64,000 nt of DNA. Origin: an uncultured Pseudobdellovibrionaceae bacterium (GTDB lineage Bacteria; Bdellovibrionota; FAC87; UBA2466). Under the pieces are notes generated by a model. The model was not told where the DNA came from. It saw only the letters and a program-made list of their open reading frames with translations, and did not search any database. Below, in pieces: positions 1,247 through 50,786 of the stretch. A program made the translations under genes and the position numbers. Location of the stretch: the NCBI GenBank assembly GCA_964396165.1, contig CAYNEF010000001.1:65990-129989 (forward strand). Direction: 5' to 3'. Each line of letters begins with the position of its first letter. Position 1 is the stretch's first letter.

Positions 1247-1756
1247 TTAATCGCGATAAAGGCAATGTGCGTAGATTACATGGCTGTGGCGCGCTTCATG
1301 AAACCTAAGTTTACTTACTACTTCTTCTTGCAACTTTTCGATTTTCGTCTCATGAAACTCAAAGATCTCGTCGCAATCTATACAAACGATGTGATCATGA
1401 TGGCGGGTAGCGCTGATTTCAAACACTTTTTCTCCAGTGTCCTTAATAAGCGTTTCACTTACAATCCCTGCCTCGGCAAAGATTTGCATAGACCGATAGA
1501 CAGTAGCAGGACCGACATTGGGGAATAACTTCGCAACTCTTGCTATCAGTCCTATTACGGTAAAATGAGACTCGTGCTGCGCAACGATGCTTAGAATTTT
1601 AATCCTGGATTCGCTTTGATGAAGTTTTCTTTCAACGACAAAGAGATCTAGTTTGCTCTTAAGTAATTTAAACCTTTCTTCTTTAGTAGAATACTGTGAT
1701 TCTGCCCAAGAAGGAACTGGGCGACCACATGGAAGCTTGTAAGCTTTAGTTTTCAC
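1247..1756 (-). CDS. Fur-family metal-dependent transcriptional regulator (Fur/Zur-like)
   Basis: Winged-helix N-terminus and HHDHIVCIDCDEIFEF-type metal-site motifs plus a C-terminal HC..Y..D. Last gene of the minus-strand efflux operon. Confidence 0.8.
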   Translation of the reverse strand: MKTKAYKLPCGRPVPSWAESQYSTKEERFKLLKSKLDLFVVERKLHQSESRIKILSIVAQHESHFTVIGLIARVAKLFPNVGPATVYRSMQIFAEAGIVSETLIKDTGEKVFEISATRHHDHIVCIDCDEIFEFHETKIEKLQEEVVSKLRFHEARHSHVIYAHCLYRD

Positions 1757-1786
1757 GGTAAGGACGGCTTGAATGGCTCTAGCACT

Positions 1787-3085
1787 TCAAGACTCCTCTT
1801 CATGGATCTTTTCGGTCTCCACAGAGGCGCCAAGAGATTTTTCAAGCTCGATTCTATCGCTCAAAAATTCATATTTGTAGTTTTCGCGTCTTAACTTTGT
1901 TTCGTAAAGCACTTCGGCCGCTTGCTTTAAGTCGATTGAGTTCTTAATCCCGCGCTTGTACTCGCTCATAACCGCGCGGTAATATTTTTCCGCACGATCC
2001 AAGTTTTTTTCCTCAAGATCCACTCGTTCCTGCACTACTTTTAATTTCCTATAAGCAATATCCATTTGTGTAACAGAGGTAAGAATTGCGTTTTTTAACT
2101 CGGCTTCAGTCTTTAGCCGCTTTGCCTCTCCCTCACGCTTTTCCCAGACAGCATCAAAGCCTGAAAACAGCTCCAATTTAATAATGCCCATCAAACTGAG
2201 ACTTGCCCCCCCTTGTTGCGGTCTTTCGATTAAAGGCAAATAACCAGCTTTTGCCTCGATATCAAATTTTGGGAGCCACTTACTTGTCCAAGTTTTAGAC
2301 TGCACCGACGCTATACTGGCATTCCGTCCCGCTATTAGAACCTGCTCGCTTCTTTCATTCATTTTCTTTATATAATCCATAAGCGAACCTTTAATATGCT
2401 GGTGCTGCAGTTTTCCAATCGGCTCTATTTTCGCGCCTATTTCTTCCCCAAGCAACCTTCTTAAATTAGCCCGGGCAGATTCTAACTCTTGTTGGACTAG
2501 CACAATGTCTGATCTTAGGATGGCATCGCGCAAGTCAAAATCCATGACATCAGACTCACCTGTCATCCCGGCTCCGCGCTTTTGTTTCGCGAGTTTTCTT
2601 AATTCATTGTTAAGTGTGAGCGCCTCGTTTTTGAGGTCTAATTTTCCCTTCGTGAAAATATAAAGGTGGAAAATATTTTCCACATCAAGTCCCACGCGAA
2701 ACTCAGTACGGTTGAGTCTAACTTCCGCCTTTTCAGCTTCTAAACTAGCTATTTGCGACCGGTAGCTATCGGAAAATCCGTTAAATACATTTATATTGCC
2801 ATAAGCATATCCAATCACTGCAGACTCGCTATTATGACTGTCAATTTGATTATCGGCACCACCAGCCACTCCCAATTTCGGGTAGTACGAGCTTCTCACA
2901 CGTCCAACAACGGCCTTTGCCTCTTCCAATGTTTTTCTTAATGCCGTCACCTCATAGTTATGCTCTACAGCGAATTTCTTTGCATCCTCTAGGCCCACCG
3001 TCCCAGTTTGGGAAGAATGACTTGGACTAGAATGGAGAACTTGCGAAAGTCCTAAAAATAACATTAAAACACTTCTCATCTTCAT
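1787..3085 (-). CDS. Outer membrane efflux protein (TolC/CzcC family OMF)
   Basis: Length, coiled-coil-rich repeats typical of OMF. Real start is likely MKMRSVLMLFLGLSQVLHS (signal peptide) at 3085; the track ORF runs further to 3193. Immediately downstream of the His-rich gene. Confidence 0.8.
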   Translation of the reverse strand: MKMRSVLMLFLGLSQVLHSSPSHSSQTGTVGLEDAKKFAVEHNYEVTALRKTLEEAKAVVGRVRSSYYPKLGVAGGADNQIDSHNSESAVIGYAYGNINVFNGFSDSYRSQIASLEAEKAEVRLNRTEFRVGLDVENIFHLYIFTKGKLDLKNEALTLNNELRKLAKQKRGAGMTGESDVMDFDLRDAILRSDIVLVQQELESARANLRRLLGEEIGAKIEPIGKLQHQHIKGSLMDYIKKMNERSEQVLIAGRNASIASVQSKTWTSKWLPKFDIEAKAGYLPLIERPQQGGASLSLMGIIKLELFSGFDAVWEKREGEAKRLKTEAELKNAILTSVTQMDIAYRKLKVVQERVDLEEKNLDRAEKYYRAVMSEYKRGIKNSIDLKQAAEVLYETKLRRENYKYEFLSDRIELEKSLGASVETEKIHEEES

Positions 3086-3086
3086 C

Positions 3087-3641
3087 TCAATCGAGCTCCA
3101 CTTGGATTTTTGCCTTTTTTTCTTCGCCTTCGTATTTTGCCGAAATATTCGCAAAGAAACGAAACGCCTTTTGGGGATCAAAAGCGGCTTCAAAATTCGA
3201 TTCTGTAACTGTTACCTTAACCACTTCCGTTTTCTTTTGACGCGGCAACTCAATGCTTAGGATCACGTCCTTAAAAGCACTGGTAGGAAGACTTGAAAAA
3301 ACTTTTGGGTTTTTGGGGTTTAGAGTAAGGGGGTAAATCTTAACCACCTTTTTTGTGTATACCACTTCAAAGAAAATTTCCGCCTCTTCCTTTTCTTCGT
3401 GGTGCTCATGCCCTTTTTCGGCGTGGTTTTCTTTCGACTCCTCTTTTTTGTCATGGTCATGTTCTTTTTCTGCGTGCCCTCCTCCACCATGTTCGTGTTC
3501 TTCTGCTTCATCATGTTCGGAGGCTTTTACTTCACCACCATGAGGAGCGGCGGGCATAGCACCCGGCATATCGTGGCCCTCGTGAGAAAATACATAAGCT
3601 CCCAGGGTCATCATCAGTAGAATTGACAATTTAAATTTCAT
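3087..3641 (-). CDS. His/Glu-rich periplasmic protein, putative metal-binding, in place of the expected RND adaptor
   Basis: Signal peptide MKFKLSILLMMTLGAYVFS. About 70-aa low-complexity HE/HD/HG-rich segment, then a ~100-aa beta-rich C-terminal domain. Overlaps the RND stop by 4 bp (translational coupling). The antisense ORFs at 3320..3620 are artefacts of its repetitive codons. Confidence 0.6.
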   Translation of the reverse strand: MKFKLSILLMMTLGAYVFSHEGHDMPGAMPAAPHGGEVKASEHDEAEEHEHGGGGHAEKEHDHDKKEESKENHAEKGHEHHEEKEEAEIFFEVVYTKKVVKIYPLTLNPKNPKVFSSLPTSAFKDVILSIELPRQKKTEVVKVTVTESNFEAAFDPQKAFRFFANISAKYEGEEKKAKIQVELD

Positions 3642-6600
3642 GCGTGTTTTTCTCCCTGCTCACGGTGCAATAGCAGTTGCTTTTCAGCGGACTTCTGTCC
3701 GAACTTATAAAACACAGTGGGGGTTACCCACATATCTAACAGAGTCGAGCTAAAAAGGCCGCCAAAGATAACAACGGCTACCGGGTGAAGGATTTCCTTT
3801 CCAGGCTCTCCTTTAGCGAGAATCAACGGGACAAGCGCCAGCATCGCCGTCAAAGCCGTCATTAACACCGGCACTAGTCTCTCAAGAGATCCCCTAATGA
3901 CCATCTCATCGGAAAACTTTTCCTTTTCATGTTCCATAAGATGGAGATAGTGGGAAATCATCATGATGCCGTTTCTAGAGGCAATCCCGCAAAGAGTCAC
4001 AAAAGCCACCATGGAAGCCACGGAAAGAATTCTATCAGATAGGAAAACCGCGACTACGCTTCCAATGAGTGCCATTGGAATATTGAGCATAATCTGAATC
4101 GAGATGAAGGCTGACTTAAAATGCATATAAAGGACGAGGAAGATTCCAACAATAGACAAGCTCCCTAGGATAAGCATCATACGACTTGCTTTTTGCTGAC
4201 TTTCAAATTGACCACCATAGCTAATGAAATAGCCCTCAGGCATTGTGACTTTTGATTTGACGCGTGCTTGGATCTCTTCAATCACGCTATTCAAATCCCT
4301 TCCCGACGTATTGGCTTGTACCACAATACGCCTTTGCATGTTTTCTCGGTTAATCATGTTGGGACCTGTCGTTTCGTAAACATCCGCCACTTCATCCAAA
4401 GTGACTCTTCTCCCATCGGGCATCGTCTTAATAATTAAACTTTGAATGTTCTTTACACTGGATCTTGATTCGTCATCCAAACGCATAAAAACTTCGTATA
4501 TCCTTTGTCCCTCTAACACCTGGGCAGTGACTTCCCCTGCCAATGCCATTTCAAGTTGCGTGGCAAGCTCTCCCACTACCATGTTATATTTGATCACTTC
4601 GTCTCTCATAAATCGAATTTTTATCTTTGGGATCTGCACTTGTTGTTCAATTTGAAGGTCGACTAAACCTTTTACATCTTGAATCTCGCTAAAAACTTGT
4701 GCCGCTAAAGATCGTAATTCACTTTGGTTCGTACCAAAAACCTTAATTGCGATTTGTGCTCTCACGCCAGATAAAAGGTGATCTAACTGGTGAGAAATGG
4801 GTTGCCCAACATTGATAGAGGCTCCTGGCAAATTTTTTACCAACCTCTCACGGATTTCTTCGAGAACAGTATCTCGTTTTCTTCCCTTTAAGTTAAAATC
4901 CACATCGATTTCACTGTTATGAACACCTTCGGCATGCTCATCTAGTTCTGCTCTACCTGTCCGCCTACTGACTGATTTTACTTCTGGGCTTTCAAGGATC
5001 AACTTTTCCGCCTTTGTCCCAATTTCATTCGAATAGTCTAAGCTCACCCCGGGGGTCAGGATTACAGCTATCATGGCGGTACCTTCATTAAACTTAGGCA
5101 GAAATTCTTTTCCCATAAAAGGGATCAGACAAATACTCGCGATAAAAAGACCGCTCACAGTACCTAAAACAAGCTTGGGTTTCTTCAATGCTTTTCTTAA
5201 AATCTTTTCGTCCCATTTTTTTAAGAAGCGTACCAAGAAACCATCGGCTCCGTGCTCCATTTGCTTCATATTAGGCAAAAGGTACGAACAAAGCGCAGGC
5301 GTTACTGTAAGCGAAATCAATAAAGAAGCGACGAGAGAAACCACATAGGCAACCCCCAAAGGGGCAAAAAACCTTCCTTCAAGGCCGCCTAATGAAAAAA
5401 GCGGGATAAAAACTAAAACTACGATAATAGTCGCAAAAACAATCGAATTTCTTACTTCGGATGAGGCTTCGTAAATAATTTGGGTTGCAGGTTTTGGATT
5501 CTCGGCATGTTTATTTTCTTTTAGTCTTCTAAAAACATTCTCTACGTCAACGATAGCGTCATCGACAAGTTCACCAATCGCAACTGCGAGCCCCCCTAGC
5601 GTCATCGTGTTGATATTGAGATCAAAAAACTTAAACACAATGGCAGTAAGTACGAAGGACAATGGGATCGCAGTAAGAGTGATTGCAGTGGTCCTGAAAT
5701 TAAGGAGAAAGAGGAATAAAATGATGGTGACAAGAATTGCGCCGTCTCTTAGCGCCTCTTGAACGTTGTGAACGGCATGCTCAATGAAATCCGCTTGCTT
5801 AAAAAGATCTTTATTAATTTTAACTCCTTTTGGGAGAGTCTTTTGGATGTCTTCAAGGGTCTTCGCAATTTGTTCCGACAGCTCGATCGTCGAAGCCCCA
5901 GGTTGCTTTTGGATACTCATGATGACAGCGGGGGAACCATTGATACTTGCATCGCCGCGCTTAATTCTTGGGCCAAACTGGACTTTTGCGACTTCTTTTA
6001 CCTGGACCGGTCTTCCCAAAGAACTCCCCACTGAAGAGCTCTCCACTTCCTCAAGAGATTTGACCCTGCCAAAATTTTGGATGAGATATTCTTTATTGTT
6101 CAGATTTACGAATCCGCCCGTGGTATTTTGGCTTAAGTGGGTGAGATTATGCTGGACGTCTTCAAGGCCAATGTTTCTTTTTCTCAGCTCTTCGGAAGAT
6201 AATTTGATTTGATATTGTTTTACCATTCCCCCGATCGGAATGACTTGGGCAATTCCCGGCGTTGAAAGCAGCCGAGGCCGAATAACCCAGTCGGCTATTG
6301 TCCTAAGATCCATGGGTGTAATAGCCGGATCTTCCGAAGAAAGCCCGACTAACTGAATTTGGCCCATAATGGAAGAAATCGGACCCATGACAGGACTAAT
6401 CCCTTTTGGAAGAGTCTCTTTTACAAGAGCTAACTTTTCGGCGACAAGTTGGCGGTTTCGAAAGATGTCCGTTCCCCAGCCAAACTCCATGTAAATTGCA
6501 GACAGGCCCACTCCTGAAGTGGAACGGACGCGCTCTAGCCCAGGAGTTCCATTTATGGCCACTTCAACCGGAAGAGTGACAAGGACTTCGACTTCCTCAG

Positions 6601-6772
6601 GGGCAAGTCCCCCGGCTTCTGTCATGATTGTAACGGTAGGACGATTAAGATCAGGAAAAACATCGACCGGCAAGTGAACTATAACCCATCCCCCGTAAGC
6701 AAGAAGCATCGCTGCGCTTGCTAGGACGAAAAGGCGGTTTTTAAGAGAAAACTGGATGATCCGATCAAACAC
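3638..6772 (-). CDS. Heavy-metal efflux RND transporter (CzcA/CusA family)
   Basis: 1044 aa, 12-TM RND architecture. N-terminus MFDRIIQFSLKNRLFVL...VDVFPDL typical of the HME subfamily. Confidence 0.9.
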   Translation of the reverse strand: MFDRIIQFSLKNRLFVLASAAMLLAYGGWVIVHLPVDVFPDLNRPTVTIMTEAGGLAPEEVEVLVTLPVEVAINGTPGLERVRSTSGVGLSAIYMEFGWGTDIFRNRQLVAEKLALVKETLPKGISPVMGPISSIMGQIQLVGLSSEDPAITPMDLRTIADWVIRPRLLSTPGIAQVIPIGGMVKQYQIKLSSEELRKRNIGLEDVQHNLTHLSQNTTGGFVNLNNKEYLIQNFGRVKSLEEVESSSVGSSLGRPVQVKEVAKVQFGPRIKRGDASINGSPAVIMSIQKQPGASTIELSEQIAKTLEDIQKTLPKGVKINKDLFKQADFIEHAVHNVQEALRDGAILVTIILFLFLLNFRTTAITLTAIPLSFVLTAIVFKFFDLNINTMTLGGLAVAIGELVDDAIVDVENVFRRLKENKHAENPKPATQIIYEASSEVRNSIVFATIIVVLVFIPLFSLGGLEGRFFAPLGVAYVVSLVASLLISLTVTPALCSYLLPNMKQMEHGADGFLVRFLKKWDEKILRKALKKPKLVLGTVSGLFIASICLIPFMGKEFLPKFNEGTAMIAVILTPGVSLDYSNEIGTKAEKLILESPEVKSVSRRTGRAELDEHAEGVHNSEIDVDFNLKGRKRDTVLEEIRERLVKNLPGASINVGQPISHQLDHLLSGVRAQIAIKVFGTNQSELRSLAAQVFSEIQDVKGLVDLQIEQQVQIPKIKIRFMRDEVIKYNMVVGELATQLEMALAGEVTAQVLEGQRIYEVFMRLDDESRSSVKNIQSLIIKTMPDGRRVTLDEVADVYETTGPNMINRENMQRRIVVQANTSGRDLNSVIEEIQARVKSKVTMPEGYFISYGGQFESQQKASRMMLILGSLSIVGIFLVLYMHFKSAFISIQIMLNIPMALIGSVVAVFLSDRILSVASMVAFVTLCGIASRNGIMMISHYLHLMEHEKEKFSDEMVIRGSLERLVPVLMTALTAMLALVPLILAKGEPGKEILHPVAVVIFGGLFSSTLLDMWVTPTVFYKFGQKSAEKQLLLHREQGEKHA

Positions 6773-6783
6773 CTAAACTCCGC

Positions 6784-7503
6784 TTAGAGAACGAACCCAA
6801 CACCGAGATCGAAAGACCATCCTTCAAATACTTGTGCCGAGGCAAAGCTACGGTACAGGGTCGAGCCAAGTTGAACACCTTTAAACCATTTGGAAGCTTC
6901 GCTCGTCCCTTCAAAGAGATTTAAATGAGCTGATAACTGATAGGAAGGCACCCAAAACCCTTGTTCAATCCCGTCAAGTTTCCCACTTTGATAAAACCAA
7001 AGAAAGCCGACTGAAGAAGCAATGCCCGGCTTTAAAAAAGAAGCGCCCGGAATACGGTAGTCAATTTGAGCCCCTAGATTTAAAGGAAGGGTATGGACTT
7101 TTAAAACGTCGCTAAATTTCTTTCCCGATTTATTTGTCACTGAAATCAAGCTTTCACGGTAGGAATACCCAGCCGAAGCTAACCCTGAAACCTCAACGCC
7201 ATAAAAAGCCGCTAAGACAGTTCCCACCTCCACCCGTAAAGTGGGAAGGCTTGAACCCGTACTTGCATAAGGCACGGTGTAGTAATCGTTTGATAGTTCA
7301 AATTTCTCAGGGGTAATGTAAGAAAACACGGGCCTTAATATAATCCCGTTTGAAGCATAATTTTCAACTTTAGCTTCCGTGACACTTTCACGGTAAAGCG
7401 TATTGACTAAATCCTTATCCATTTCAAAATCGGATTTAGATTCTGGTTCTGAGCCAAAGGTAGACAAACAAAAAATAGCTAAGACAAACAAAAACCGACT
7501 CAT
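6784..7503 (-). CDS. Secreted protein, possible small outer-membrane beta-barrel
   Basis: Signal peptide. Alternating hydrophobic pattern, aromatic-rich, C-terminal ...GVGFVL. 11 bp upstream of the RND start, so in the same operon. Confidence 0.45.
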   Translation of the reverse strand: MSRFLFVLAIFCLSTFGSEPESKSDFEMDKDLVNTLYRESVTEAKVENYASNGIILRPVFSYITPEKFELSNDYYTVPYASTGSSLPTLRVEVGTVLAAFYGVEVSGLASAGYSYRESLISVTNKSGKKFSDVLKVHTLPLNLGAQIDYRIPGASFLKPGIASSVGFLWFYQSGKLDGIEQGFWVPSYQLSAHLNLFEGTSEASKWFKGVQLGSTLYRSFASAQVFEGWSFDLGVGFVL

Positions 7504-8735
7504 TTATTCACCTCTAAGTTACCCACTTCCCCGAGCGCATCCGCTGCTACTGTCCCTCGGATTACTTTCCGATCTACGTCCGCTTTCACCGTTAAATTGT
7601 AACTTCCCGTTGTTTTTGCAACAAGCTTTCTTGTGTAGTAGTTATATTGAACTTCGCTGAAAGGGAGCTCGAAATACTCAGTAGAACCGAAGGGTCCAAG
7701 ATAAAACCTAACATTACCAGTCACTTTAAGACCGTTGGGGCTTGTCAGATCTTGGGAAGTGACAAAAGCGATCTGCACTCTTTCCGGTAGGTTAGAGTTT
7801 GGATTTGTGTTAACGAACTTACCTTGATAGGTCCCTTTTAAAGCCTCAAAAACATCCCCTGCTCCTGCTGTATCGGGAGGACCAGTTTTTCTAAAAGAAA
7901 TTTTTCCGAGCGTTCCCGTATATTGGCTGGACCATTCGCCAGTGACCTCCCCTTCAGCCCAACTTCCGGAGAGAACGATATCAGTGCCTTCTTGCCTGAA
8001 AATAATTTGCCCCGTAACGGCGTTAAACTGTACTTTATCGAACTTATAGGTCAGATATTCCGATGAGTTCCAGTCGCCGCAGATTAACTTTAAGGTAGCT
8101 GCCGCCTTCAACCCCTCAGGAGGCTGAAAACTCGTCTGAAGGTTAAGCTGGCCTAAATGGTAGAGCTTGCCCTCACGCAAAAGAATACCTTGGTATTCCC
8201 CCTTTAATTGTTCTGCTAACCCATTTGTCGATTGCGTTGCATTGCGATCTAATGAAACTGTCCCGGAACTCACAGAGGTGGGCATCGTCCAAGTTCCCTG
8301 AAGTTTTGACTCTGTTTGAGTGAGCGAAAAAATTATATTTTCCCCAGAGCTCGCGACTACAATATCAAGAGCACTTCGTTTTGGATCAAAATCAGCCTTT
8401 TGTACGGCAAATCCAGGAGAGGTATTCGGATCACATCCTTGACCAAATGTAAAACATAGGTATCCCGTAAGAATTGGGGTCATCACAGGATCGACTTGTC
8501 CTTCAATCGTTGTAGGGATGTCCTTGATTTCAAGACGCAAGGAAACGTTTTGTGTTTTACCGCTGGTCTGCACGAGTTTGCCAGCATACTCCCCTTCGAC
8601 CTGTTTTAACTCAGAACGTTTATTTTCCGACGATGCTCGAAGCTGTTCTCTTTTCAGATCTCTATCGCTAACAGAATTTTTCGAGCAGGAAATAGCAATA
8701 AGACCAAAGAATGCAAGTGCAAGTTTTTTATACAT
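7500..8735 (-). CDS. Lipoprotein built from ~110-aa tandem repeat domains (uncharacterised family)
   Basis: Lipobox LIAISCS. Three to four internal repeats with the L(K/T)G.Y.G...(F/Y)LGPFGS.EY...F..VQ(F/Y)N.Y.R.L motif. Paralogous to 8753..9580. Confidence 0.6.
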   Translation of the reverse strand: MYKKLALAFFGLIAISCSKNSVSDRDLKREQLRASSENKRSELKQVEGEYAGKLVQTSGKTQNVSLRLEIKDIPTTIEGQVDPVMTPILTGYLCFTFGQGCDPNTSPGFAVQKADFDPKRSALDIVVASSGENIIFSLTQTESKLQGTWTMPTSVSSGTVSLDRNATQSTNGLAEQLKGEYQGILLREGKLYHLGQLNLQTSFQPPEGLKAAATLKLICGDWNSSEYLTYKFDKVQFNAVTGQIIFRQEGTDIVLSGSWAEGEVTGEWSSQYTGTLGKISFRKTGPPDTAGAGDVFEALKGTYQGKFVNTNPNSNLPERVQIAFVTSQDLTSPNGLKVTGNVRFYLGPFGSTEYFELPFSEVQYNYYTRKLVAKTTGSYNLTVKADVDRKVIRGTVAADALGEVGNLEVNK

Positions 8736-8752
8736 TAGTACCCTTCCTAACT

Positions 8753-9580
8753 TTATGGATAGTGCGTAAGGGTGGCGTCAGCGACTTGCCCCATCCCATC
8801 GGCAAAAACAGTGCCTGTAAAAATCCCATCGTGACTCATTTTGCCTTTGAAGGTTAAGCCATATTCCATAGTACGCGCCGTCAAATAACGATTGTAAAAA
8901 TTAAACTGCACATCGGTGAGTTTTGTTTCCACATATTCCAAAGAGCCAAAGGGTCCAAGGTAAAGACGCACATTTCCGGAAATGACAATTTTAGGTTCTG
9001 TCCCTGAATTTTCTTGCGTACTCACTAAAGACATTGAAGCACGCTCTGGCAGATTAGACTCGGAGTTGGTGTTTTTTAACTCTCCCCGATAATGTCCGGT
9101 AAGCGTTTTAACTAAAATGCCTTGAGAAGGAGGCGTAGGTTCTACATCTTTAGCAGCGCTGAACTTGCCGACCTTTCCAAGCAACGTCGAATGCCAGTCT
9201 CCCTGAATCGTTCCGGTCTTAAGAAAACCAATCATACTTACGTTATTTTTTTCGCTTCGAAGAGTAATTTGCCGTGTAAGTAAGTTCATTGGCACATCGT
9301 CAAATTCGTAAGTTAAAAATTCATTTGAGTTTTGTTCCCCGAAAAAAATTCTCAAATTTGCTGATATTTTAAGCTGGCCACCACCGACGTTTACGGTGCG
9401 TAGCGTTATGTGCGCATATTGGTAAAATTGGCTGCCGTCATGAAGTAAAACCGCCTTATACAACCCCTGCACCGACTCATCATCCAAAGAATTAGCTTCA
9501 GAACCAAAACTTGCGAATGGCGTCATAAAAGAGAGTACTAAAATACCTAAAAAAAACTTTTTGATGTTTGACTGGAACAC
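8753..9580 (-). CDS. Secreted paralog of the 7500..8735 repeat-domain protein (two repeats)
   Basis: Signal peptide. NLPERASMSLVSTQ...VRLYLGPFGSLEYVE...VQFNFYNRYLTA aligns with NLPERVQIAFVTSQ...VRFYLGPFGSTEYFE...VQYNYYTRKLVA in the neighbouring gene. First gene of the operon. Confidence 0.6.
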   Translation of the reverse strand: MFQSNIKKFFLGILVLSFMTPFASFGSEANSLDDESVQGLYKAVLLHDGSQFYQYAHITLRTVNVGGGQLKISANLRIFFGEQNSNEFLTYEFDDVPMNLLTRQITLRSEKNNVSMIGFLKTGTIQGDWHSTLLGKVGKFSAAKDVEPTPPSQGILVKTLTGHYRGELKNTNSESNLPERASMSLVSTQENSGTEPKIVISGNVRLYLGPFGSLEYVETKLTDVQFNFYNRYLTARTMEYGLTFKGKMSHDGIFTGTVFADGMGQVADATLTHYP

Positions 9581-9679: not shown

Positions 9680-10429
9680 ATGCGCAATAACTTTCCCATG
9701 CTAATTCCCTTATCAAAAGAGAGGGAGCCGAATTTGAAAGGGGAAAAACGTCGTATTTTATTGGTGGAAGACCATATAGACATGGCAGAACCTTTAATAA
9801 AGGGGCTGGAAGAAGAGGGGTTCTACGTAAAACACGTAACTCTTGGGAAAGAAGCCATTCGTGTTTTTAACGAGGTTTGGCAACTAATCATTTTAGATCT
9901 CACGCTTCCCGATGTGCCCGGCGAATCTATTTTAAGCCACTTAAAACAAAAACCCGACTATCCTCCCGTTCTTATCCTCACTGCCCGAAGCAAAGTAGAA
10001 GATAAAGTAGAACTCTTTCGTCAAGGCTGTGACGACTACATGACTAAACCTTTCGCATTTGAAGAGCTTTTAGGACGAGTTCAGGCGCTCCTTCGACGTT
10101 CGCACCGGGTTCTGCCTAATAAAACCACCCTTTTAGATCTGGAATTAGATCCCAGCACTCATGTGCTCTCTAAGAAAAACCTCTCTACGCAACTCACTCC
10201 GAAAGAATCTGCCTTAGTGCAATTTCTTATGGGAGCCGAAGGAAGAGTAGTCTCTAGGAAAGAGTTGTTCTTATATGGTTGGGGACTTGATAAGGAACCT
10301 GACACTAATTTCATCGGGGTTTACCTCTTTAACCTAAGAAAAAAACTTTCTGAAGTAAATTGTGCAGACTGGTTGATGACGCTTCGAGGAACTGGATACC
10401 GCTTTTACGATCCGAAAGAAAAACAATGA
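9680..10429 (+). CDS. OmpR-family response regulator (CzcR/CusR-like)
   Basis: Receiver domain (RILLVEDH...D) plus winged-helix trans_reg_C (LTPKE..LL). Likely true start is TTG at 9734, preceded by gagggag 6 nt upstream, giving M-KGEKRRILLVEDH. Confidence 0.85.
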   Translation: MRNNFPMLIPLSKEREPNLKGEKRRILLVEDHIDMAEPLIKGLEEEGFYVKHVTLGKEAIRVFNEVWQLIILDLTLPDVPGESILSHLKQKPDYPPVLILTARSKVEDKVELFRQGCDDYMTKPFAFEELLGRVQALLRRSHRVLPNKTTLLDLELDPSTHVLSKKNLSTQLTPKESALVQFLMGAEGRVVSRKELFLYGWGLDKEPDTNFIGVYLFNLRKKLSEVNCADWLMTLRGTGYRFYDPKEKQ

Positions 10430-11691
10430 CGACGAAAGTTAGATTCACTCTCACCATTTCGATGGTAGTGGCCCTTTTGGTGGGAGCACTCAGTTCGTTC
10501 GTGTATGTGAGAGTCCGCGCCAAGATGCTTACCCAGGCTTCCCAATCCCTTGCGGACTTCCTTAAGCATGAAGCCGATCATATCGTTCATCCTATGGAAC
10601 AAAATGGGTTAGTGATCGACAAAAATCACTTTGGGGATTTTCTTTTGAAAATAGAATCTGAAAACGAAATCCTTTTTGACGGATTCCCCCAAAAAACCGC
10701 CGAAATTAATTCTCCCAATTACATTGTAAAAAAAGTAGTCCAAGATATTAACGGAAAGCCTTTGACCTTGACGGGGGCTTATAATTTGGCCCCTCTTTAT
10801 CATTACCTCGACTCGCTTCTTCAAACTTTGATGTTAGGGTGGGTGCTTACTGTTGCACTCATCATTCCTATTAGTTATTCCCTTGCACTGGCTTTGCTTA
10901 AACCGTTTAGAAACCTTGCTGCAGTGACGTACGAATTGCGCGCCGAAAGTTTGGAGTTTCGGTTCCCAGTACCCCAATATAAAGACGAAGAAGGTCTATT
11001 AGTAGTTTCTTTCAATGCTCTATTGGAACGTCTTCAGAGGTCCTTCGAAAGCATGAGAAATTTCTCACGTAATGTCTCCCATGAGATTCGAACGCCTGTT
11101 TCCGTCATTATGAGCCAATCCGAGATGGCTTTGCGAAAAAACAGGACTTCCGACGAATACCGTAATGCTTTGGAAAAGTCCTTTGATGAATCAAAAAGGT
11201 TAAAAAGCATTATTGACAACCTTCTCTCGCTTGCTGAAGTTGATAGGATTTATGATGAAAACAGAAAGACCACTTTCCCTGTTTTGCTAAGAATTAAAGA
11301 AATTGTGGCAACTCTTACTCAGCAGAGGAATGAATTGAAAGAAATTGCAATTGACTGCGACGAAAATCTTTTGTTTATCGGAAATGAAGTGGCTTTCACC
11401 TCTATCGTCTCAAATCTGATTGAGAACGCCCTTAAATACGGCGGAAAAAAAGTACGTGTATCCTGCATGGAGCAAGGAGAGCGAGTAGTTTTTCTCATCG
11501 AGGACGATGGCCCTGGGATGGTTAGCGCCACTGCCTTACCAAGCAAAACAAAAATGCCTAAGGGAGAAACAAGTCATGGACTTGGGCTTTCAATTGTAAG
11601 AGCTTTTTCTGAAGCTTATGGAGGAGAACTTATCCTTAAGCAATCTTCCCTAGGTGGGCTTTGCGCGACCACCTCTTTACCCTTGAAATAA
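10426..11691 (+). CDS. Sensor histidine kinase (two TM segments, HAMP, HisKA, HATPase)
   Basis: H-box SHEIRTP, N-box NLIENALKYG, G-boxes DDGPGM and GLGLS. ATG overlaps the response-regulator TGA (ATGA); the track ORF starts earlier, at 10360, in the same frame. Confidence 0.85.
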   Translation: MTTKVRFTLTISMVVALLVGALSSFVYVRVRAKMLTQASQSLADFLKHEADHIVHPMEQNGLVIDKNHFGDFLLKIESENEILFDGFPQKTAEINSPNYIVKKVVQDINGKPLTLTGAYNLAPLYHYLDSLLQTLMLGWVLTVALIIPISYSLALALLKPFRNLAAVTYELRAESLEFRFPVPQYKDEEGLLVVSFNALLERLQRSFESMRNFSRNVSHEIRTPVSVIMSQSEMALRKNRTSDEYRNALEKSFDESKRLKSIIDNLLSLAEVDRIYDENRKTTFPVLLRIKEIVATLTQQRNELKEIAIDCDENLLFIGNEVAFTSIVSNLIENALKYGGKKVRVSCMEQGERVVFLIEDDGPGMVSATALPSKTKMPKGETSHGLGLSIVRAFSEAYGGELILKQSSLGGLCATTSLPLK

Positions 11692-11848: not shown

Positions 11849-12778
11849 TTGGGGGAACTAATAATGAGGTACTTTAAAAAAGTTGGCGCGATCTTCTGTC
11901 TGACTATAAGTCTCTTTTCATTTTCTATTTCTGCCAACGAAACAAGCGATAAAGAAGTAGAACGAATTAAACCTGAAGAAGGAAGTTCGAGTCTTTCTGA
12001 TCATCCTTTGCGCGCAGAATCTCAATTCGGAGCCAGCTTGGATCTTAGGCCTTCCTGGTCAGGTAACGAAGGGAGCATGCACACAGAAAACGAACTTGCT
12101 TTGGAGTACCGCCCAACCTCTAGTGCTCACATCGGCTACACCCAAGAATTTCAAACTAACCTCTACAATCCTAATACTGGCGAGACCGACCAAGGGGTTA
12201 GTCCTCATCTACATGACGGGTATCTACGAGGAGAATTTAAAGAAATCTGGAAAAATGGGAATGGCCTATCCTTTACTAATGAAGCACGTGTTTATTTACC
12301 CACCCATGCAGGGGATCGCGAGGCTGGACTCGTAACAGCACTCAGGAATTATTTCAAATTCAATTATGAAGTCTCTGACATGGTAGAGCTTGCAGTGATG
12401 GATGCCCCTATTTTGCATGTTTATAATAAGGCTGGCGTAGTGGACGAAGCAGGAGAAGCTACAGCAAATCCCGTAATTGAAAACAGGCTATTCTTGGTCG
12501 CTGGACTTTCTTTCTTTAAAAAATCACTTAGTCTTAAACTTCCTTTGATAGTTGAAAACGCTCGCCACAGTGATTTTCAAGAAGGGGCAAAATTTAATAA
12601 TAGTTGGAGCCATAAACTTTGGGTTTATCCGGAGCTTACTTATTCCGTGGGGGAATCTACCGCCATTGGAATGGCGTACTACAGTGAAAACCTCGTTAAA
12701 GATGACTTTTCTGAACTAGCATTAAATGCTGGATTTTCAAAAGGAGTTTTCCAAGTCATTCTCCAACAGTCTTTGTAG
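11849..12778 (+). CDS. Secreted protein, possible outer-membrane beta-barrel
   Basis: Signal peptide MRYFKKVGAIFCLTISLFSFSISA, with a probable start at 11864. Beta-rich and aromatic-rich. Sits next to the metal two-component system. Confidence 0.45.
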   Translation: MGELIMRYFKKVGAIFCLTISLFSFSISANETSDKEVERIKPEEGSSSLSDHPLRAESQFGASLDLRPSWSGNEGSMHTENELALEYRPTSSAHIGYTQEFQTNLYNPNTGETDQGVSPHLHDGYLRGEFKEIWKNGNGLSFTNEARVYLPTHAGDREAGLVTALRNYFKFNYEVSDMVELAVMDAPILHVYNKAGVVDEAGEATANPVIENRLFLVAGLSFFKKSLSLKLPLIVENARHSDFQEGAKFNNSWSHKLWVYPELTYSVGESTAIGMAYYSENLVKDDFSELALNAGFSKGVFQVILQQSL

Positions 12779-15596: not shown

Positions 15597-17873
15597 ATGC
15601 AATCAGATGCTCAACCTTTGTCTCAAAAATGGGTAAATTCAATAAAGAAGTCCCCAAACCAGTCTAAAAATAAGACACCCAACCGAAACTTATGGGACTT
15701 GGGATTATTTTCCCTCCTCTCGGATTGGAAACGCCTTTTCTCTTCAGACTGCTTTCGGCAAGATTTTATTTCAGGTCTAGTAGTAGCCTGTGCTGCTGTG
15801 CCTCTCTCTTTAGCTATTGCCCTAGCTTCGGGAGTTACGCCAGCTACGGGGCTCACTACAGCAATCGTAGCTGGGATAGTGTGCGCGTTATTTGGTGGCA
15901 GCCCTCTTTCAGTAAGTGGTCCAGCGGCTGCAATGTCAATTCTCGTAAATACCGCAGTCATTAAATACGGCTTGTCGGGCCTTTTTTTACTCACCTTAGT
16001 ATGCGGCGCCTTGCAGATTTTTAGTGGCGTATTTCGTCTTGGGAAAATTATCCGCTTTGTTCCTGCTCCAGTTATAATGGGTTTCACCGCAGGAATCGGA
16101 GCAATTATTTTTACGGGGCAACTACCTAAAGCTTTAGGACTTCCAGCCGCTGATCCATCCCATGTTTGTGATGTAATCACACATTCTATGGAGATCTTCC
16201 GACAAACAAATCCTATGGAACTATTTCTGTCTTTGCTTACTATTGGCCTTATGTTTACATTCCCTAAGTTTTCTTCCAAAGTTCCAGCCGCCTTAGTGGC
16301 TGTTGTGGTACCTTCAACTCTAGCAATCTTTCTAAAAATACAAGTAGAAGTCATTGGAACAATTCCCACAAGCTTATTACTCCCTACTGTCCCTACCTTG
16401 CCTAAACATGTAGATGAGGGTTTCTTTTTAATGGCGATAACTATTTACGCTCTTGCCTCGCTGGAAACTCTGCTTTCTTCAAGTGCTGTAGATAAAATGA
16501 GTAGAGGAAAAGCACATAACCCTGACCAGGAACTAATAGGCCAGGGCCTCGGTAATATAGCCTCAGCCATGTTAGGCGGAATCCCCATAACCGCGGTAAT
16601 CGCCAGATCTGCACTAAATGTTCAAGCAGGAGCAAAAACTCGAAGATCGTCAATTATTCATTCGTTATTTATAGTGGCCGCTATTTTGTTATTATCTCCC
16701 GTTGTCAGTCGGATCCCAATATCGGTATTAGCCGGGATTCTTCTTTCTACCGCTTTAAGAATGTTAAATCCTAAGGAATTAGTAGAGCTTTGGAAAACCT
16801 CTAAAACCGATGCCGTCGTTTATGCAGTAACTTTTGTCGTAATAGTTCTCGTGGGCTTGCTTGCAGGTGTCCAGGCCGGTATTGCAGCGGCATTGATTAT
16901 CGCAGCTATACGACTTTCGCAGGTACGAATCAACGTGGACGTTCACGAAGGAATGTCGCCTACACGTCTATCATTATCAGGCCCCTTAACTTTTCTTTCG
17001 TCGGGCCAAATGTCCGACTTGCAAAAACGTCTCGAGAATGAACCTATTGACGGCGTACTGCTCGACTTGTCAGCCGTAAGTTATTTTGACCATTCAGGGA
17101 GTGAGCAATTAACAAATTTTATCAATTATTTATTTAGACGAACCTCTAGGTTAGCCGTCTTACACGCTTCCCATGAGCTAAAAAGGAAAATAGAGTTCCA
17201 ACTAGAAGAAGCTACAAAAGAGATTTTTGTTGATACCGAAACTGAGGCACAAATAAAACTCAACGACAAGTTACCGATTCGTCGCCTCTTACAAGGAATA
17301 ACTAGTTATTCGCGCAAGAAACAAAAATATGAATTGCTCTTCGAAAAACTCGCGGAACGGCAAAGCCCTCACACTCTTTTAATCACATGTTGCGACAGCC
17401 GAATCGATCCCACTCTAATTACTTCGACTCATCCAGGTGAACTTTTTGTTTTAAGAAACATAGGGAATCTTGTACCGAAATATGGTTCCACTAGCCATGT
17501 TGGCGAACAGGCTGCCATTGAGTACTCTCTTTCCGTACTAAACGTAAAAGAGGTTGTAGTGTGCGGACACTCGGGATGTGGAGCAGTTCATGCGAAGCTC
17601 AAGGGCGTGCCTAAGACTTTACCCGGAGTGGATAAATGGTTAACCCAAATAAACGATAACGCTTTCTTGGCCACGGACAATGTGGATACAGCATCAAAAA
17701 CAAATGTAGTGCAACAAATGGAAAACCTGATGAGTTATAACATCGTCAAAGAAAAAGTCGAATCAGGTGTCCTACGCCTACATGGGTGGTTTTACGAAAT
17801 TAAAACTGGTGATGTCTCTACTTGGGATAAGTCTTCTGGTTCTTTTGGAAAGCTTTTTCTAAATCGAAATTAG
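15597..17873 (+). CDS. SulP-family anion (bicarbonate/sulfate) permease fused to STAS and C-terminal beta-carbonic anhydrase domains
   Basis: SulP TM core, STAS region, then beta-CA motifs CCDSRIDP and HSGCGAV. Such SulP-CA fusions are known in established knowledge (e.g. mycobacterial Rv3273). Confidence 0.85.
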   Translation: MQSDAQPLSQKWVNSIKKSPNQSKNKTPNRNLWDLGLFSLLSDWKRLFSSDCFRQDFISGLVVACAAVPLSLAIALASGVTPATGLTTAIVAGIVCALFGGSPLSVSGPAAAMSILVNTAVIKYGLSGLFLLTLVCGALQIFSGVFRLGKIIRFVPAPVIMGFTAGIGAIIFTGQLPKALGLPAADPSHVCDVITHSMEIFRQTNPMELFLSLLTIGLMFTFPKFSSKVPAALVAVVVPSTLAIFLKIQVEVIGTIPTSLLLPTVPTLPKHVDEGFFLMAITIYALASLETLLSSSAVDKMSRGKAHNPDQELIGQGLGNIASAMLGGIPITAVIARSALNVQAGAKTRRSSIIHSLFIVAAILLLSPVVSRIPISVLAGILLSTALRMLNPKELVELWKTSKTDAVVYAVTFVVIVLVGLLAGVQAGIAAALIIAAIRLSQVRINVDVHEGMSPTRLSLSGPLTFLSSGQMSDLQKRLENEPIDGVLLDLSAVSYFDHSGSEQLTNFINYLFRRTSRLAVLHASHELKRKIEFQLEEATKEIFVDTETEAQIKLNDKLPIRRLLQGITSYSRKKQKYELLFEKLAERQSPHTLLITCCDSRIDPTLITSTHPGELFVLRNIGNLVPKYGSTSHVGEQAAIEYSLSVLNVKEVVVCGHSGCGAVHAKLKGVPKTLPGVDKWLTQINDNAFLATDNVDTASKTNVVQQMENLMSYNIVKEKVESGVLRLHGWFYEIKTGDVSTWDKSSGSFGKLFLNRN

Positions 17874-22794: not shown

Positions 22795-22931
22795 TAAAAA
22801 ATCAAATACTTAGCAAATAATCCACTTTAAGTTAGAAATTCGTCACAAAAGCACACTGCGCTTCGTAACTATCTTCAAGAAGGGAAATCTTCGACAGCCA
22901 TTAACTATGGTTTAGAAGAAACGCTCAAAAA

Positions 22932-23294: not shown

Positions 23295-23372
23295 AAATTA
23301 GTTTCCTGAAATTTATTAAAAACCAAGTCCATGAGTTTACGGTCATAAATACCTTACTCATAAAAATCAAAA

Positions 23373-49055: not shown

Positions 49056-50786
49056 CTAGTATCGTTTAAACTTGATGACACGTTGTAAACGGCCTGCGGT
49101 ACCGGTGTACCCACCGAGTAAAGCGCCCTCGATTCCGTAATCCGTTATCTTACCCAGAATGGTTTGATCAGCATCCAACGACAGTAAGATTGTCCCTGTA
49201 TAAAAATCTACGATTCCTGATTGTACAACACCGTACACAGTGCTGCTTCCGCAATAGAGCTCAGCGGTTCCAGTCAATGTGAAAGGAAAATAGGAAGGAA
49301 CATGGTTATTTGAATTACTGATTGCCATCATCGTCAGATTGAAATCCATCGAGAAGCAGCTATTATTTGGCCGTGAAATATTGGCCGTATATTTTCCTTG
49401 CACAGGTTTAGGCAAATGCACACCATTAAAAATGGCCACATCCGGGTTTTCCCCTTTTACAAACTCAACTGTACCCACCTTGCCGTAACTTTTTGAGTAA
49501 AGAATACCTTTTAGTCCCTGCTCTCCCCATTCTGTTATTTTTAAGATCTGATCGCCTGTGCTATCCAAAAGCAATTCTTTGAATTTACCCAGAGCTAATT
49601 GAGTGGGCACAAAAGCTATCGAAATGGAACTATCCGTGTCTGTATCTGTACCATGATCGGTAGAAGGGAAAATTCTTCCCACCATAGAAACCATCTTCTG
49701 CCAGGAACGGTGATCGGAGTTTTCTACAGGAGCTCCTGAAAGCGCAATTTCTAAAGACATAATTTTATAGATATTACGTTCTTCTAAATGCAACACGCCG
49801 TAGTATTCCCCTTCTATATTCGAACGATCCTTTGTAGGAAAAATATGGTTTTCTATCTGTTCAATCCCCTTCAGATGGTGTTCTCGTGATTTTTTACTGC
49901 ACTTGTACTTCACCATGTACTCGTCCAACGAATCGGGTGCGGAAGCAAGGCGTGTGAATTCGCATCTGTTGCCGCATTTAATCGAATCGCCCTTTACGTG
50001 ACAGGATTCTTCCGCAGCAGGAAGTAAAAGAACTGCAGAATAAGGATTGTAACTTGCCCCTAACCACGTGCCGAAGATAGTACTATTCCCCGCAAGAGTG
50101 GAAAAACGTGAGTAGCCCAATGTGCGGGCTCGGATCTGTACCCCTTGCAGTGTATTGATCTTATCCCGACTGGAATCTTCCAATTTACTTGCTTCGAGTT
50201 GCAAGGTGATGTCTTTGCCCTCGCATCTGCCTTTGTACTCACCAGTCAAAGACTTAACCATCGGGATATTAGGAAATATTGCGTTCACTTTTTCAAAGTC
50301 ATCGGGAGTGGGGGTATAAACCAATTCAGCATGACCCCTAATAACACCACCACGGGTGCTTCTGATTTTGCCTGTAATTTTATTTCCATCATCCAGCACC
50401 ATGCCTTGCCAGAATGTAAGATCTGTTCCAAATCCAGAGAGCATTCCATCCAAAACAATCTCTGAAGAATCCCAAAGATAATCTTCTACTACATAGTAAT
50501 GGCTGACGTATTCGTGGGTGGTAAAACCCCCTAACTTTAACTTTAAAAAAGCAATAAGTTGGGACTTGCCGTCCACTGTATCTCTTCTTTCAAACTCGAT
50601 ACACAATCCTACTTTTTCCGTGCGCCCTTCGAAAGTCACAAACCCGATATAGGTACCTATCTTTGGACCAGCGGCGAAAAGGCGAGTGGTCAGAATTAGA
50701 ATGAGAAAAAATGCTTTGAAAATCCGTGTATTTTGCAAGGGAAAGACTCCTAAAAAGTGTGCTTTTTTAGCATTTTTAAGAGCCAA
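49056..50786 (-). CDS. Large secreted hypothetical protein
   Basis: Hydrophobic N-terminus, beta-rich. No motif recognised. Confidence 0.5.
   Translation of the reverse strand: MALKNAKKAHFLGVFPLQNTRIFKAFFLILILTTRLFAAGPKIGTYIGFVTFEGRTEKVGLCIEFERRDTVDGKSQLIAFLKLKLGGFTTHEYVSHYYVVEDYLWDSSEIVLDGMLSGFGTDLTFWQGMVLDDGNKITGKIRSTRGGVIRGHAELVYTPTPDDFEKVNAIFPNIPMVKSLTGEYKGRCEGKDITLQLEASKLEDSSRDKINTLQGVQIRARTLGYSRFSTLAGNSTIFGTWLGASYNPYSAVLLLPAAEESCHVKGDSIKCGNRCEFTRLASAPDSLDEYMVKYKCSKKSREHHLKGIEQIENHIFPTKDRSNIEGEYYGVLHLEERNIYKIMSLEIALSGAPVENSDHRSWQKMVSMVGRIFPSTDHGTDTDTDSSISIAFVPTQLALGKFKELLLDSTGDQILKITEWGEQGLKGILYSKSYGKVGTVEFVKGENPDVAIFNGVHLPKPVQGKYTANISRPNNSCFSMDFNLTMMAISNSNNHVPSYFPFTLTGTAELYCGSSTVYGVVQSGIVDFYTGTILLSLDADQTILGKITDYGIEGALLGGYTGTAGRLQRVIKFKRY

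Follow-up and report, generated by a model that had tools for sequence, protein, structure and literature searches.

The window analysed here, a 64,000-nucleotide stretch of DNA from an uncultured Pseudobdellovibrionaceae bacterium, encodes three secreted proteins (A, B and C) that are predicted to be made only of tandem 8-stranded barrels, and which represent three paralog classes of a family restricted, among labelled sources, to Bdellovibrionota. Because these genes lie next to a Zn/Co/Cd-type efflux pump in all of the loci compared, the proteins are probably unrecognised envelope parts of this metal pump. We tentatively propose, with a probability of about 0.35 by analogy with a known duct-bound lipoprotein, that they provide protein–protein scaffolding in the outer envelope, on a non-acylated TolC-like duct, without binding metal themselves. 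The open reading frames of A and B are adjacent, leftwards-transcribed, and exactly where the initial annotation of this DNA had placed them:

8753..9580, minus strand: protein B, 275 aa, from the open reading frame list, a secreted S-H protein
about 9503-9580, minus strand: B signal peptide, aa 1-26
9131-9499, minus strand: B1 barrel, S type, aa 28-150
8756-9130, minus strand: B2 barrel, H type with the NLPER motif, aa 151-275
7500..8735, minus strand: protein A, 411 aa, from the open reading frame list, a predicted lipoprotein
8685-8687, minus strand: A lipobox Cys17
8607-8666, minus strand: conserved helix of A, aa 24-43
8220-8618, minus strand: A1 barrel, N type, divergent, aa 40-172
7857-8219, minus strand: A2 barrel, S type, aa 173-293
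7503-7856, minus strand: A3 barrel, H type, aa 294-411

The internal repeats of A and B greatly exceed chance expectation: with 300 shuffles as the reference, Smith-Waterman z-scores are 17 for A2/A3, 10 for B1/B2, 35 for A2/B1, 39 for A3/B2 and 5.8 for A1/A2, and for each of the five unit pairs none of the 300 shuffles reached the observed score. The initial annotation counted four copies in A and two in B of a ~110-aa unit; B does contain two (residues 28-150 and 151-275), but profile hits and an AlphaFold model with three sets of eight strands give A three units and not four, with unit lengths of 118-133 aa. Each protein has the quoted motif NLPER...YLGPFGS.EY...VQ(F/Y)N just once, in its C-terminal H unit (A3 or B2). 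The features common to all unit types are weaker: strand 1 has G.Y.G, G...S.EY lies between strands 3 and 4, and a G.W comes late in the unit. Tandem duplication followed by divergence, as had been suggested, accounts well for the A and B genes, although the unit that they share is better described as a two-barrel S-H module, with A2 corresponding to B1 and A3 to B2. Residues 175-406 of A and 35-268 of B share 38.6% aa identity (E 1e-51), and A exceeds B by an extra N-type barrel and the helix. At the DNA level the similarity survives only as a 50-nt remnant (72% identity), and the duplication is therefore old.

The AlphaFold2 model of A (pLDDT 84.9) contains three 8-stranded domains and is all-beta except for a single 20-residue helix; each unit is modelled as a compact 8-stranded up-and-down beta-barrel with a calycin-like fold. 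The antiparallel up-and-down topology is that of lipocalins and other calycins, but strand 1 carries G.Y.G and not G-x-W, there is no helix after strand 8, and Pfam scans of the proteins, and of 45 single units, return no lipocalin match even at E <= 10. There is likewise no match to the YceI profile (PF04264). Scanning A, B, C and two products of neighbouring genes (OMP239 and His184, below) against Pfam and NCBIfam, and the 45 single units against Pfam (E up to 10), gave only noise, and searching PDB sequences with profiles of whole proteins and of single units returned nothing below E 0.1, the best match (4zgf, an uncharacterised protein) aligning over one strand pair only. With no match in Pfam, NCBIfam or PDB sequences, the domain was rightly described as uncharacterised. 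A Foldseek search of the three-domain A model against the PDB gave no match at E <= 1e-3. In ligand-binding calycins conserved residues gather at one 'open' end, and the same had been expected of the head barrel; the loops at both barrel ends are, however, conserved as much as, or more than, the strands, and the argument was dropped for this reason.

The leader of A ends in ...IAIS-C17, a bacterial lipobox, and the assignment of A as a lipoprotein is supported by the invariance of Cys17 in 35 A orthologs, acylation being predicted; S23, R25, D26, K39, R40, E42 and L43 are also invariant in this set, and the helix following the lipobox ranks among the best-conserved stretches of the protein. 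B appears to be a plain secreted protein with a leader of the signal-peptidase-I type, as annotated, and all 23 of the B-type proteins examined have the S-H architecture. The +2 position of the A lipobox is S/A/G/T, an outer-membrane signal by the E. coli rule. The +3/+4 positions (K/R and N/S) resemble the Pseudomonas inner-membrane signal, as in MexA.

A third paralog in the window, identified by tblastn, was missed in the initial annotation, which had only the two proteins:

49056..50786, minus strand: protein C, 576 aa, secreted

C matches the unit profile (E 1.7e-15) and has four divergent units at residues 39-156, 176-257, 320-444 and 458-557, with hhalign probabilities of 98.9, 88, 98.7 and 74% respectively. 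It is located 40 kb from the operon in the window, and in other genomes its gene follows a TolC-like gene. The family comprises 445 clusters among 1.84 billion representatives, none of them named, with all labelled sources being metagenome-derived genomes of Bdellovibrionota, and cluster look-ups for ten distant members returned no names either. A search of 185,579 species genomes gave only ten loci, of which eight are labelled as Bdellovibrionota (three as families of the phylum and one as 'Deltaproteobacteria'), the remaining two carrying only 'Proteobacteria bacterium' and 'bacterium'. In class A proteins a lipid anchor and the helix are followed by an N barrel, 0-3 middle barrels and, in most cases, an H 'head' barrel at the C-terminus, and the barrel number ranges from 1 to 5; class B is a soluble S-H pair, and class C a soluble four-barrel protein. 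The size of the family, its clear N/S/H grammar and the confident structure model merit a domain entry.

The genes flanking A and B are as follows:

9680..11691, plus strand: two-component system (Pfam), divergently transcribed
9680-10429, plus strand: OmpR-type response regulator
about 10426-11691, plus strand: sensor kinase, with its best NCBIfam match to a heavy-metal sensor kinase subfamily, below cutoff
6784..7503, minus strand: OMP239, a small outer-membrane barrel with an N-terminal helix and 8 long strands
3638..6772, minus strand: RND permease of the heavy-metal type, 1044 aa (Pfam ACR_tran, 1e-261)
3087..3641, minus strand: His184, secreted and His-rich
1787..3193, with a probable start near 3085, minus strand: TolC-like outer-membrane efflux protein, OEP (Pfam OEP, 6e-39)
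1247..1756, minus strand: Fur-family regulator, the last gene of the string (Pfam FUR, 3e-28; NCBIfam)

The RND permease belongs to TIGR00914 (CusA/CzcA; 826 bits, cutoff 701), and its PDB relatives are CusA (E 5e-147) and ZneA (E 5e-133), with multidrug pumps at 1e-80 or weaker. In the alignment the methionine triad of CusA, a Cu(I) pump, is absent and the ZneA-like acidic/His positions are present. Together with the ZnuABC, CDF, ArsR and Fur-family genes that neighbour the pump clusters, these features indicate that the pump is of the divalent-metal (Zn/Co/Cd) type. OMP239 is an OmpA/NspA-like barrel, having the signal peptide and the 8 long transmembrane strands of OmpA, OmpX and NspA; its loop motif WFYQSGKLDGIEQGFWVP is almost invariant (15 of 18 positions invariant or nearly so), and its start codon overlaps the A stop codon here and in L001, L002, L004 and L005. 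The mature N-terminus of His184, HEGH..PGA.P.APHGG, is followed by a His/Glu-rich linker and a ~100-aa beta domain. The His184 gene is translationally coupled to the RND gene, which it follows in the loci without CzcB, and its family consists of 33 unnamed clusters. The OEP has no lipobox, and the N-termini of 14 orthologs similarly lack a lipobox Cys. Promoter and terminator scans inside the operon gave results no better than those with shuffles.

B, A and OMP239 are adjacent in 16 of the 16 loci compared, always inside clusters encoding a heavy-metal RND pump and an OEP, and this strict synteny upholds the suggested tie to efflux. In L018 a single block B-A-OMP-OEP-C is set apart from RND-His184, and L017, which starts inside the OEP gene such that the upstream part falls outside the locus, has the same OEP-C and RND-His184 arrangements. 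It is this L018 block, with which L017 is consistent, that links the family to the outer-membrane channel. The homologous cluster of L018 also contains a gene for a lipoprotein signal peptidase.

We favour a reading in which B, A and C together with OMP239 would form a fixed envelope module of divalent-metal RND efflux clusters, usually under two-component control. A, lipid-tethered and expressed in coordination with OMP239, would sit on or stabilise the TolC-like duct, which has no acyl anchor of its own, on the model of YbjP, a lipoprotein on E. coli TolC, and B and C would be soluble partners using the same conserved barrel-end loops. YbjP sits on the periplasmic surface of the non-acylated E. 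coli TolC; its fold is that of DUF3828, and efflux under laboratory conditions does not require it (PMC13082787). Fixed contacts are favoured because the loops at both barrel ends and the post-lipobox helix of A are well conserved. Several points count against scaffolding: a barrel number of 1 to 5 in A is odd for a part in a fixed geometry, the YbjP precedent has a different fold (A and B have no DUF3828 match in Pfam, and theirs is a beta-barrel) and is not needed for efflux in the laboratory, C lies far from the operon, and the window contains a second RND/OEP pair that no family member adjoins.

It is possible, if doubtful, that the proteins instead assist the adjacent two-component system in sensing or feedback, similar to NlpE-OmpA-CpxA or to CpxP and ZraP, which are divergently encoded: either A and OMP239 would signal stress in the envelope or from metal, or the kinase would be damped by B. 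In the first of these systems OmpA has a lipoprotein partner, NlpE, with a lipocalin-like barrel. The OmpA-like nature of OMP239 and the best match of the kinase, to a heavy-metal sensor kinase subfamily, are compatible with such an arrangement, as is the position of B as the first gene divergent from the regulator-kinase pair both here and in 11 other loci, the pair adjoining the B-A-OMP239 triad in 12 of 16. However, the triad is also found without a neighbouring two-component system in L001, L014 and L015, and an ArsR-type regulator is present in L017 and L018; moreover, the genes are predicted to be co-transcribed with the pump and not with the regulators.

A role as a periplasmic metal buffer or metallochaperone of the CusF/CzcE/ZraP kind is unlikely. 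Here the loop carboxylates (the E of S.EY, the E of NLPER and the D/E of DALGE) would bind divalent cations and either hand them to the pump or sequester them, and the location of the genes in the operon of a divalent-metal RND pump fits this, as do a Glu that is nearly invariant across all unit types and several acidic residues conserved in the H unit. Carboxylates also serve as sites in ZneA-type pumps, whose residue numbers were compared with the alignment. A, B and C are nonetheless so poor in His and Cys that metal binding appears unlikely: mature A contains one His, the median His and Cys contents of its orthologs are 0.7% and 0%, and neither the A orthologs nor the unit types have a conserved His, Cys or Met column or a CusF- or ZinT-type site. 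Acidity or His content had been expected to support metal binding and the opposite was found, the proteins being not particularly acidic (pI 5.8-6.1). In addition, the operon already encodes an obvious metal binder in His184, and the Gly, Pro and aromatic positions that are conserved seem to serve the structure.

In the usual view, tripartite RND pumps comprise a pump, an adaptor and an exit duct, with a few small metal chaperones in addition, and the absence of a CzcB/HlyD-family gene from the operon, from the 64-kb window, and from within 10 kb in 14 of the 16 loci raises the question of whether A, B and C replace the membrane fusion protein, bridging the RND pump and the TolC-like duct; A is a lipoprotein, like many adaptors. 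Precomputed Pfam lists for L002-L005, L017 and L018 contain no such gene, and a CzcB profile run against the six-frame window and all loci matched in L001 and L014 only. In these two, though, the same triad precedes clusters with two CzcB genes, and the second RND/OEP pair in the window lacks a fusion protein gene without having A, B or C. The variable barrel number seems unsuited to a fixed bridge, the alpha-hairpin, lipoyl and MP domains of adaptors are absent from A, B and C, as is any HlyD/CzcB Pfam match, the unit profile aligns with CzcB at an hhalign probability of 0.1% (the His184 profile is likewise unrelated to CzcB adaptors), and an adaptor may be encoded elsewhere in the genome. 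We thus regard such a replacement as improbable, and see little chance that the heavy-metal RND pumps of this lineage work without a HlyD/CzcB adaptor, with A, B, C, OMP239 and the His-rich protein as a new form of periplasmic pump-duct coupling. The literature on heavy-metal RND pumps with lipocalin-like proteins, or on RND pumps without adaptors, offered nothing useful. That the proteins are lipocalin-like binders of a small hydrophobic ligand (a lipid, isoprenoid or cofactor), merely co-regulated with the pump, is also improbable, as they have no sequence membership in such families, and strict synteny and translational coupling with pump genes point to a role in the pump's own machine.

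A conserved envelope set of three tandem-barrel paralogs, an OmpA-like barrel and a His-rich protein travels with a heavy-metal RND pump across Bdellovibrionota; its proteins are undescribed, and most of the clusters have no recognisable adaptor gene. The calycin-type barrels (lipocalins, avidins, YceI, the Cap15 barrel and the giant-haemoglobin linker barrel) have no sequence match to the units, and calycins have G.W in strand 1 and a C-terminal helix where the A and B units have G.Y.G and no such helix; the units also differ in being in tandem (2-5 per protein) with loops conserved at both ends. A shares a lipobox and barrels with TbpB, LbpB, fHbp, HpuA and hemophilin, but the A model has no handle domain, there is no host-protein or haem context, and none of the 16 loci contains a Slam or TonB-dependent partner gene. 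CusF, CzcE, CzcI and ZraP are, like A, B and C, secreted, non-enzymatic and encoded in or beside heavy-metal RND or two-component loci, but they use Met, His or Cys for metal, of which A, B and C have almost none, and differ in fold and size. The NlpE-OmpA-CpxA system resembles the triad and its neighbouring kinase in combining a barrel lipoprotein, an OmpA-type 8-stranded barrel and a sensor kinase, although there is no NlpE sequence match or listed structural match, and the triad goes with the pump, also where no kinase gene is adjacent. CzcB, CusB and AcrA compare with A in operon position beside RND and OEP genes and in the lipid anchor of A, but their four domains are absent from A, B and C, there is no profile similarity, and they coexist with the triad in L001 and L014; if the barrels did replace the adaptor, they would be an exception to the textbook tripartite architecture. 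YbjP is similar to A as a lipoprotein encoded or found with a TolC-family duct that lacks N-terminal acylation, and differs from it in its DUF3828 fold, in having no beta-barrel repeat and in a gene outside any efflux operon; the likeness to A and its OEP is a functional model only. If the barrels do decorate or stabilise the duct, the very recent YbjP-TolC finding would be extended to another fold and another phylum.

The repeat proteins A and B are encoded by the first two genes of a tight string of minus-strand genes (B, A, OMP239, RND, His184, OEP, Fur), and their two ORFs coincide exactly with the limits assigned in the initial annotation.

Genes of the efflux operon and those divergent from it
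8753–9580, minus: B, secreted repeat protein, 275 aa, complete ORF
7500–8735, minus: A, repeat lipoprotein, 411 aa, complete ORF
6784–7503, minus: OMP239, small outer-membrane barrel, 239 aa; its ATG overlaps the A stop codon
3638–6772, minus: RND permease
3087–3641, minus: His184, His-rich secreted protein, 184 aa; overlaps the end of the RND gene
1787–3193, minus: TolC-like outer-membrane efflux protein (OEP)
1247–1756, minus: Fur-family regulator
From 9680, divergent from the operon: OmpR-type response regulator and sensor kinase

Straight after the sensor kinase lies a gene for a 309-residue secreted protein (11849–12778, plus strand) that has no match in Pfam or NCBIfam; its alternating sequence pattern could fit an outer-membrane barrel.

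The repeat noted within and between A and B is real. Residues 175–406 of A align with residues 35–268 of B (38.6% identity, E 1e-51), and a second alignment, of the C-terminal portion of A with the N-terminal portion of B (E 1e-7), betrays an internal repeat. After division of both proteins into units, every pair was compared, with Smith-Waterman alignments scored against 300 residue shuffles. The pairs A2/B1 (35% identity, E 2e-23, z = 35), A3/B2 (44% identity, E 2e-30, z = 39), A2/A3 (E 9e-11, z = 17), B1/B2 (E 2e-7, z = 10) and A1/A2 (E 2e-3, z = 5.8) all align, and none of the 300 shuffles scored as high as observed for any of the five. A1 is the weak member, and is confirmed as a unit by two profile searches and the structure model: a profile built from A2, A3, B1 and B2 only finds an A1-type unit in a dozen orthologs (E 1e-4 to 1e-7), a 45-unit profile matches A1 itself (E 4e-29), and its modelled fold is the same as that of the other units. 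A thus has three units and B two, so that the original count of 4+2 was one too many, and the units measure 118–133 aa rather than ~110 aa. The proposed core motif NLPER...YLGPFGS.EY...VQ(F/Y)N is present in both proteins, but only once in each, in the last unit; G.Y.G (strand 1), G...S.EY (between strands 3 and 4) and G.W (late in the unit) are all that the unit types share. The duplications are old, as only a 50-nt remnant of DNA-level similarity is left between the repeats.

The window has a third paralog, C (49056–50786, minus strand; 576 aa, secreted; unit profile E 1.7e-15), 40 kb from the operon, and the unit profile matches no other window ORF. C is the counterpart of a gene for a protein of ~530 aa placed after the TolC-like gene in other genomes, and profile-profile alignment places four divergent units in it, at residues 39–156 (98.9% probability), 176–257 (88%), 320–444 (98.7%) and 458–557 (74%), giving nine barrels in the three proteins. 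Units were typed with profiles as N (A1-like), S (A2/B1-like) or H (A3/B2-like). All B-type proteins are S-H, and the A-type lipoproteins are mostly N-S-H with N-H, N-S-S-H and N-S-H-S-H variants, reduced to the N barrel alone in two loci (L015 and L016). The last position therefore always belongs to the H unit, and the constant part of A is the N unit together with the helix before it; this post-lipobox helix is among the best-conserved stretches, with S23, R25, D26, K39, R40, E42 and L43 invariant. The five-barrel A-type proteins (N-S-H-S-H, ~670 aa; locus L001 9968–12028, P0004, P0005 and P0102–P0112) give the impression of a B-like S-H module added by fusion, with a separate B gene still present.

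A word-indexed search of 5.8 billion proteins yields 55 clusters, none with a Pfam domain or informative name. With a single-unit profile, exhaustive HMMER searching across 1.84 billion representatives retrieves 445 proteins when the cutoff is E ≤ 1e-3 and 300 when it is E ≤ 1e-10, the 150 matches listed falling into length classes of 290–680, 260–300 and 510–590 aa; cluster look-up of ten distant members gave no name for any. A one-genome-per-species scan of 185,579 species found ten loci, all in metagenome-assembled genomes. The labels of eight read Pseudobdellovibrionaceae, Bdellovibrionaceae, Bacteriovoracaceae or 'Deltaproteobacteria'; those of the other two ('Proteobacteria bacterium', 'bacterium') are uninformative.

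The family had not been recognised from sequence, and it matches nothing named: A, B and C have no match in Pfam or NCBIfam, 45 single units have none in Pfam even at E ≤ 10, and profile searches against PDB sequences gave none. An AlphaFold2 model of A, made from an alignment with 34 orthologs, is confident (mean pLDDT 84.9, pTM 0.66) and consists of a signal peptide, lipobox Cys17, a 20-residue helix (24–43) and three domains (48–164, 179–282 and 301–410), each of eight consecutive antiparallel strands. Foldseek, which had been suggested as a check, returned no match to this model at E ≤ 1e-3. Folds listed beside it are the giant-haemoglobin linker barrel domain, the Cap15 barrel, a quinohaemoprotein amine dehydrogenase domain, designed barrels, avidins, OmpA-like barrels, TbpB/fHbp/HpuA barrels, PliC, YceI and lipocalins. 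The fold class of the units is thus known and common and the sequence family is not known; we class A, B and C as probable accessory proteins of the envelope part of tripartite efflux systems, with calycin-like barrels as their building blocks.

Homologous loci, 16 at first and later 18, were compared. B, A and an OMP239 homologue are adjacent in 16 of 16, always within a cluster holding an RND permease and a TolC-like protein, and the A/OMP239 gene overlap recurs in L001, L002, L004 and L005. Ten loci have the order B-A-OMP-RND-His184-OEP, with a C-type gene after OEP in nine and upstream of B in L015, and three further short contigs keep the order up to the RND gene, where the sequence ends. 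In L018 an ArsR-type gene and one for a lipoprotein signal peptidase intervene between the block B-A-OMP-OEP-C and RND-His184, and L017, which starts inside the OEP gene, has OEP-C and RND-His184 arranged likewise, suggesting that the outer-membrane half of the system is where the family belongs. The L018 peptidase gene (Peptidase_A8, 6336–6836), flanked by the ArsR-type regulator and the RND gene, is reminiscent of the pbr lead-resistance operon, which has a signal peptidase of its own, and CDF and CadD-type genes lie nearby in the L017 and L018 flanks. Frequent neighbours of the clusters are ZnuABC, CDF transporters and ArsR-type regulators. Neither the sequence family, nor the N/S/H grammar, nor the constant association with an OmpA-like barrel in heavy-metal RND clusters is described in the libraries and literature searched. 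OMP239 resembles OmpA and NspA: it is an 8-stranded outer-membrane barrel, carries a periplasmic helix at its N-terminus and has a loop motif, WFYQSGKLDGIEQGFWVP, that is almost invariant. Pfam gives no match for it, and its homologues form only 13 clusters in the word-indexed search.

The RND protein scores above the curated CusA/CzcA family threshold and is much nearer to CusA and ZneA than to multidrug pumps. The three Cu(I)-binding methionines of CusA align with A, S and H, and ZneA positions 602, 610, 654 and 658 with E, D, H and H; a divalent metal is thus the likely substrate. His184 lies always directly 3' of this RND clade; its conserved mature N-terminus (HEGH..PGA.P.APHGG) leads into a His/Glu-rich linker, after which comes a beta domain of ~100 aa, and its family comprises 33 clusters, all unnamed, with no Pfam or PDB match for His184. 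Other metal-related genes are also present, and the window looks like a metal/metalloid resistance island.

Other metal, metalloid and ion genes, including a second metal efflux set (22171–28392)
15597–17873: SulP transporter fused to carbonic anhydrase
19394–21622: P-type ATPase
22171–22794, minus: ECF sigma factor
22932–23294: small secreted protein, 120 aa, Cys/His-containing
23373–23837: small secreted protein, 154 aa
23976–25235: TolC-like protein of the second set
25237–28392: CzcA-type RND protein, motif AIDFGLLVDGSVVLIEN
29080–30569, minus: ArsC-like phosphatase (ArsC-like by sequence reading only), then SBF/ACR3-type carrier

Further genes at 441–1211, 31666–32460, 33677–38522 and 45720–47405 include those for a secreted trypsin-family protease and for RES-domain toxin-like, TIG+Kelch, fn3+malectin and transglutaminase-elicitor-like proteins, a secreted repertoire that fits a predatory Bdellovibrio-like organism.

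We tentatively propose, with a probability of roughly 0.35, that A, B and C scaffold or stabilise the outer part of the efflux apparatus, judging from gene order, composition and analogy. In this scheme A, anchored by its lipid, would be produced together with OMP239, and B and C would be soluble partners. The variable number of barrels and the location of A, which may sit in either membrane, count against this. In 12 of the 16 loci the upstream neighbours are a divergent response regulator and kinase, and B is the first divergent gene in most, as would suit an accessory sensor or feedback component of the two-component system, like NlpE-OmpA-CpxA or CpxP/ZraP; however, the B-A-OMP239 triad also occurs without a neighbouring kinase, and we consider such a role rather unlikely.

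Mature A has a single His, the median content in its orthologs is 0.7% for His and zero for Cys, the pI is 5.8–6.1, and no His, Cys or Met column is conserved in the alignments, so that metal binding by these proteins seems unlikely; the obvious metal binder of the operon is His184. Apart from one Glu per barrel, conservation falls mostly on Gly, Pro and aromatic residues, and an enzymatic role finds no support. That the proteins act as a carboxylate-based metal chaperone is a doubtful proposition.

The operon (1247–9580) has no gene matching the HlyD/CzcB-family membrane fusion proteins; with a CzcB profile, neither the window translated in six frames nor 14 of 16 homologous loci give a match, and Pfam scans of the other large window ORFs reveal no membrane fusion protein. 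Such genes are lacking from the window operon, L002–L013 and L015–L018, and are found only in L001 and L014 (two each), whose RND proteins are only 33% identical to that of the window and which have no His184 homologue. Adaptor absence is therefore a feature of these clusters, and it could be imagined that A, B and C replace the membrane fusion protein in an adaptor-free RND coupling. This is improbable: L001 and L014 have both the triad and CzcB genes, and the triad is missing beside the second TolC-like and RND pair (23976–28392; classic CzcA motif), which has neither an adaptor gene nor an adjoining family member; adaptor absence thus does not track the presence of A and B. A role unconnected with efflux, as binders of a small hydrophobic ligand, is equally improbable; ligand-binding calycins differ from A, B and C, whose loops are conserved at both barrel ends.

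These loops, conserved as much as the strands or more, suggest fixed inter-barrel or protein-protein contacts. None of the TolC-like proteins of these clusters has a lipobox. [quoted passage not shown] The conserved loops, the scarcity of His and Cys, the non-acylated OEP and this precedent lead us to favour a scaffolding role, in which A would stand to its TolC-like protein much as YbjP stands to TolC.
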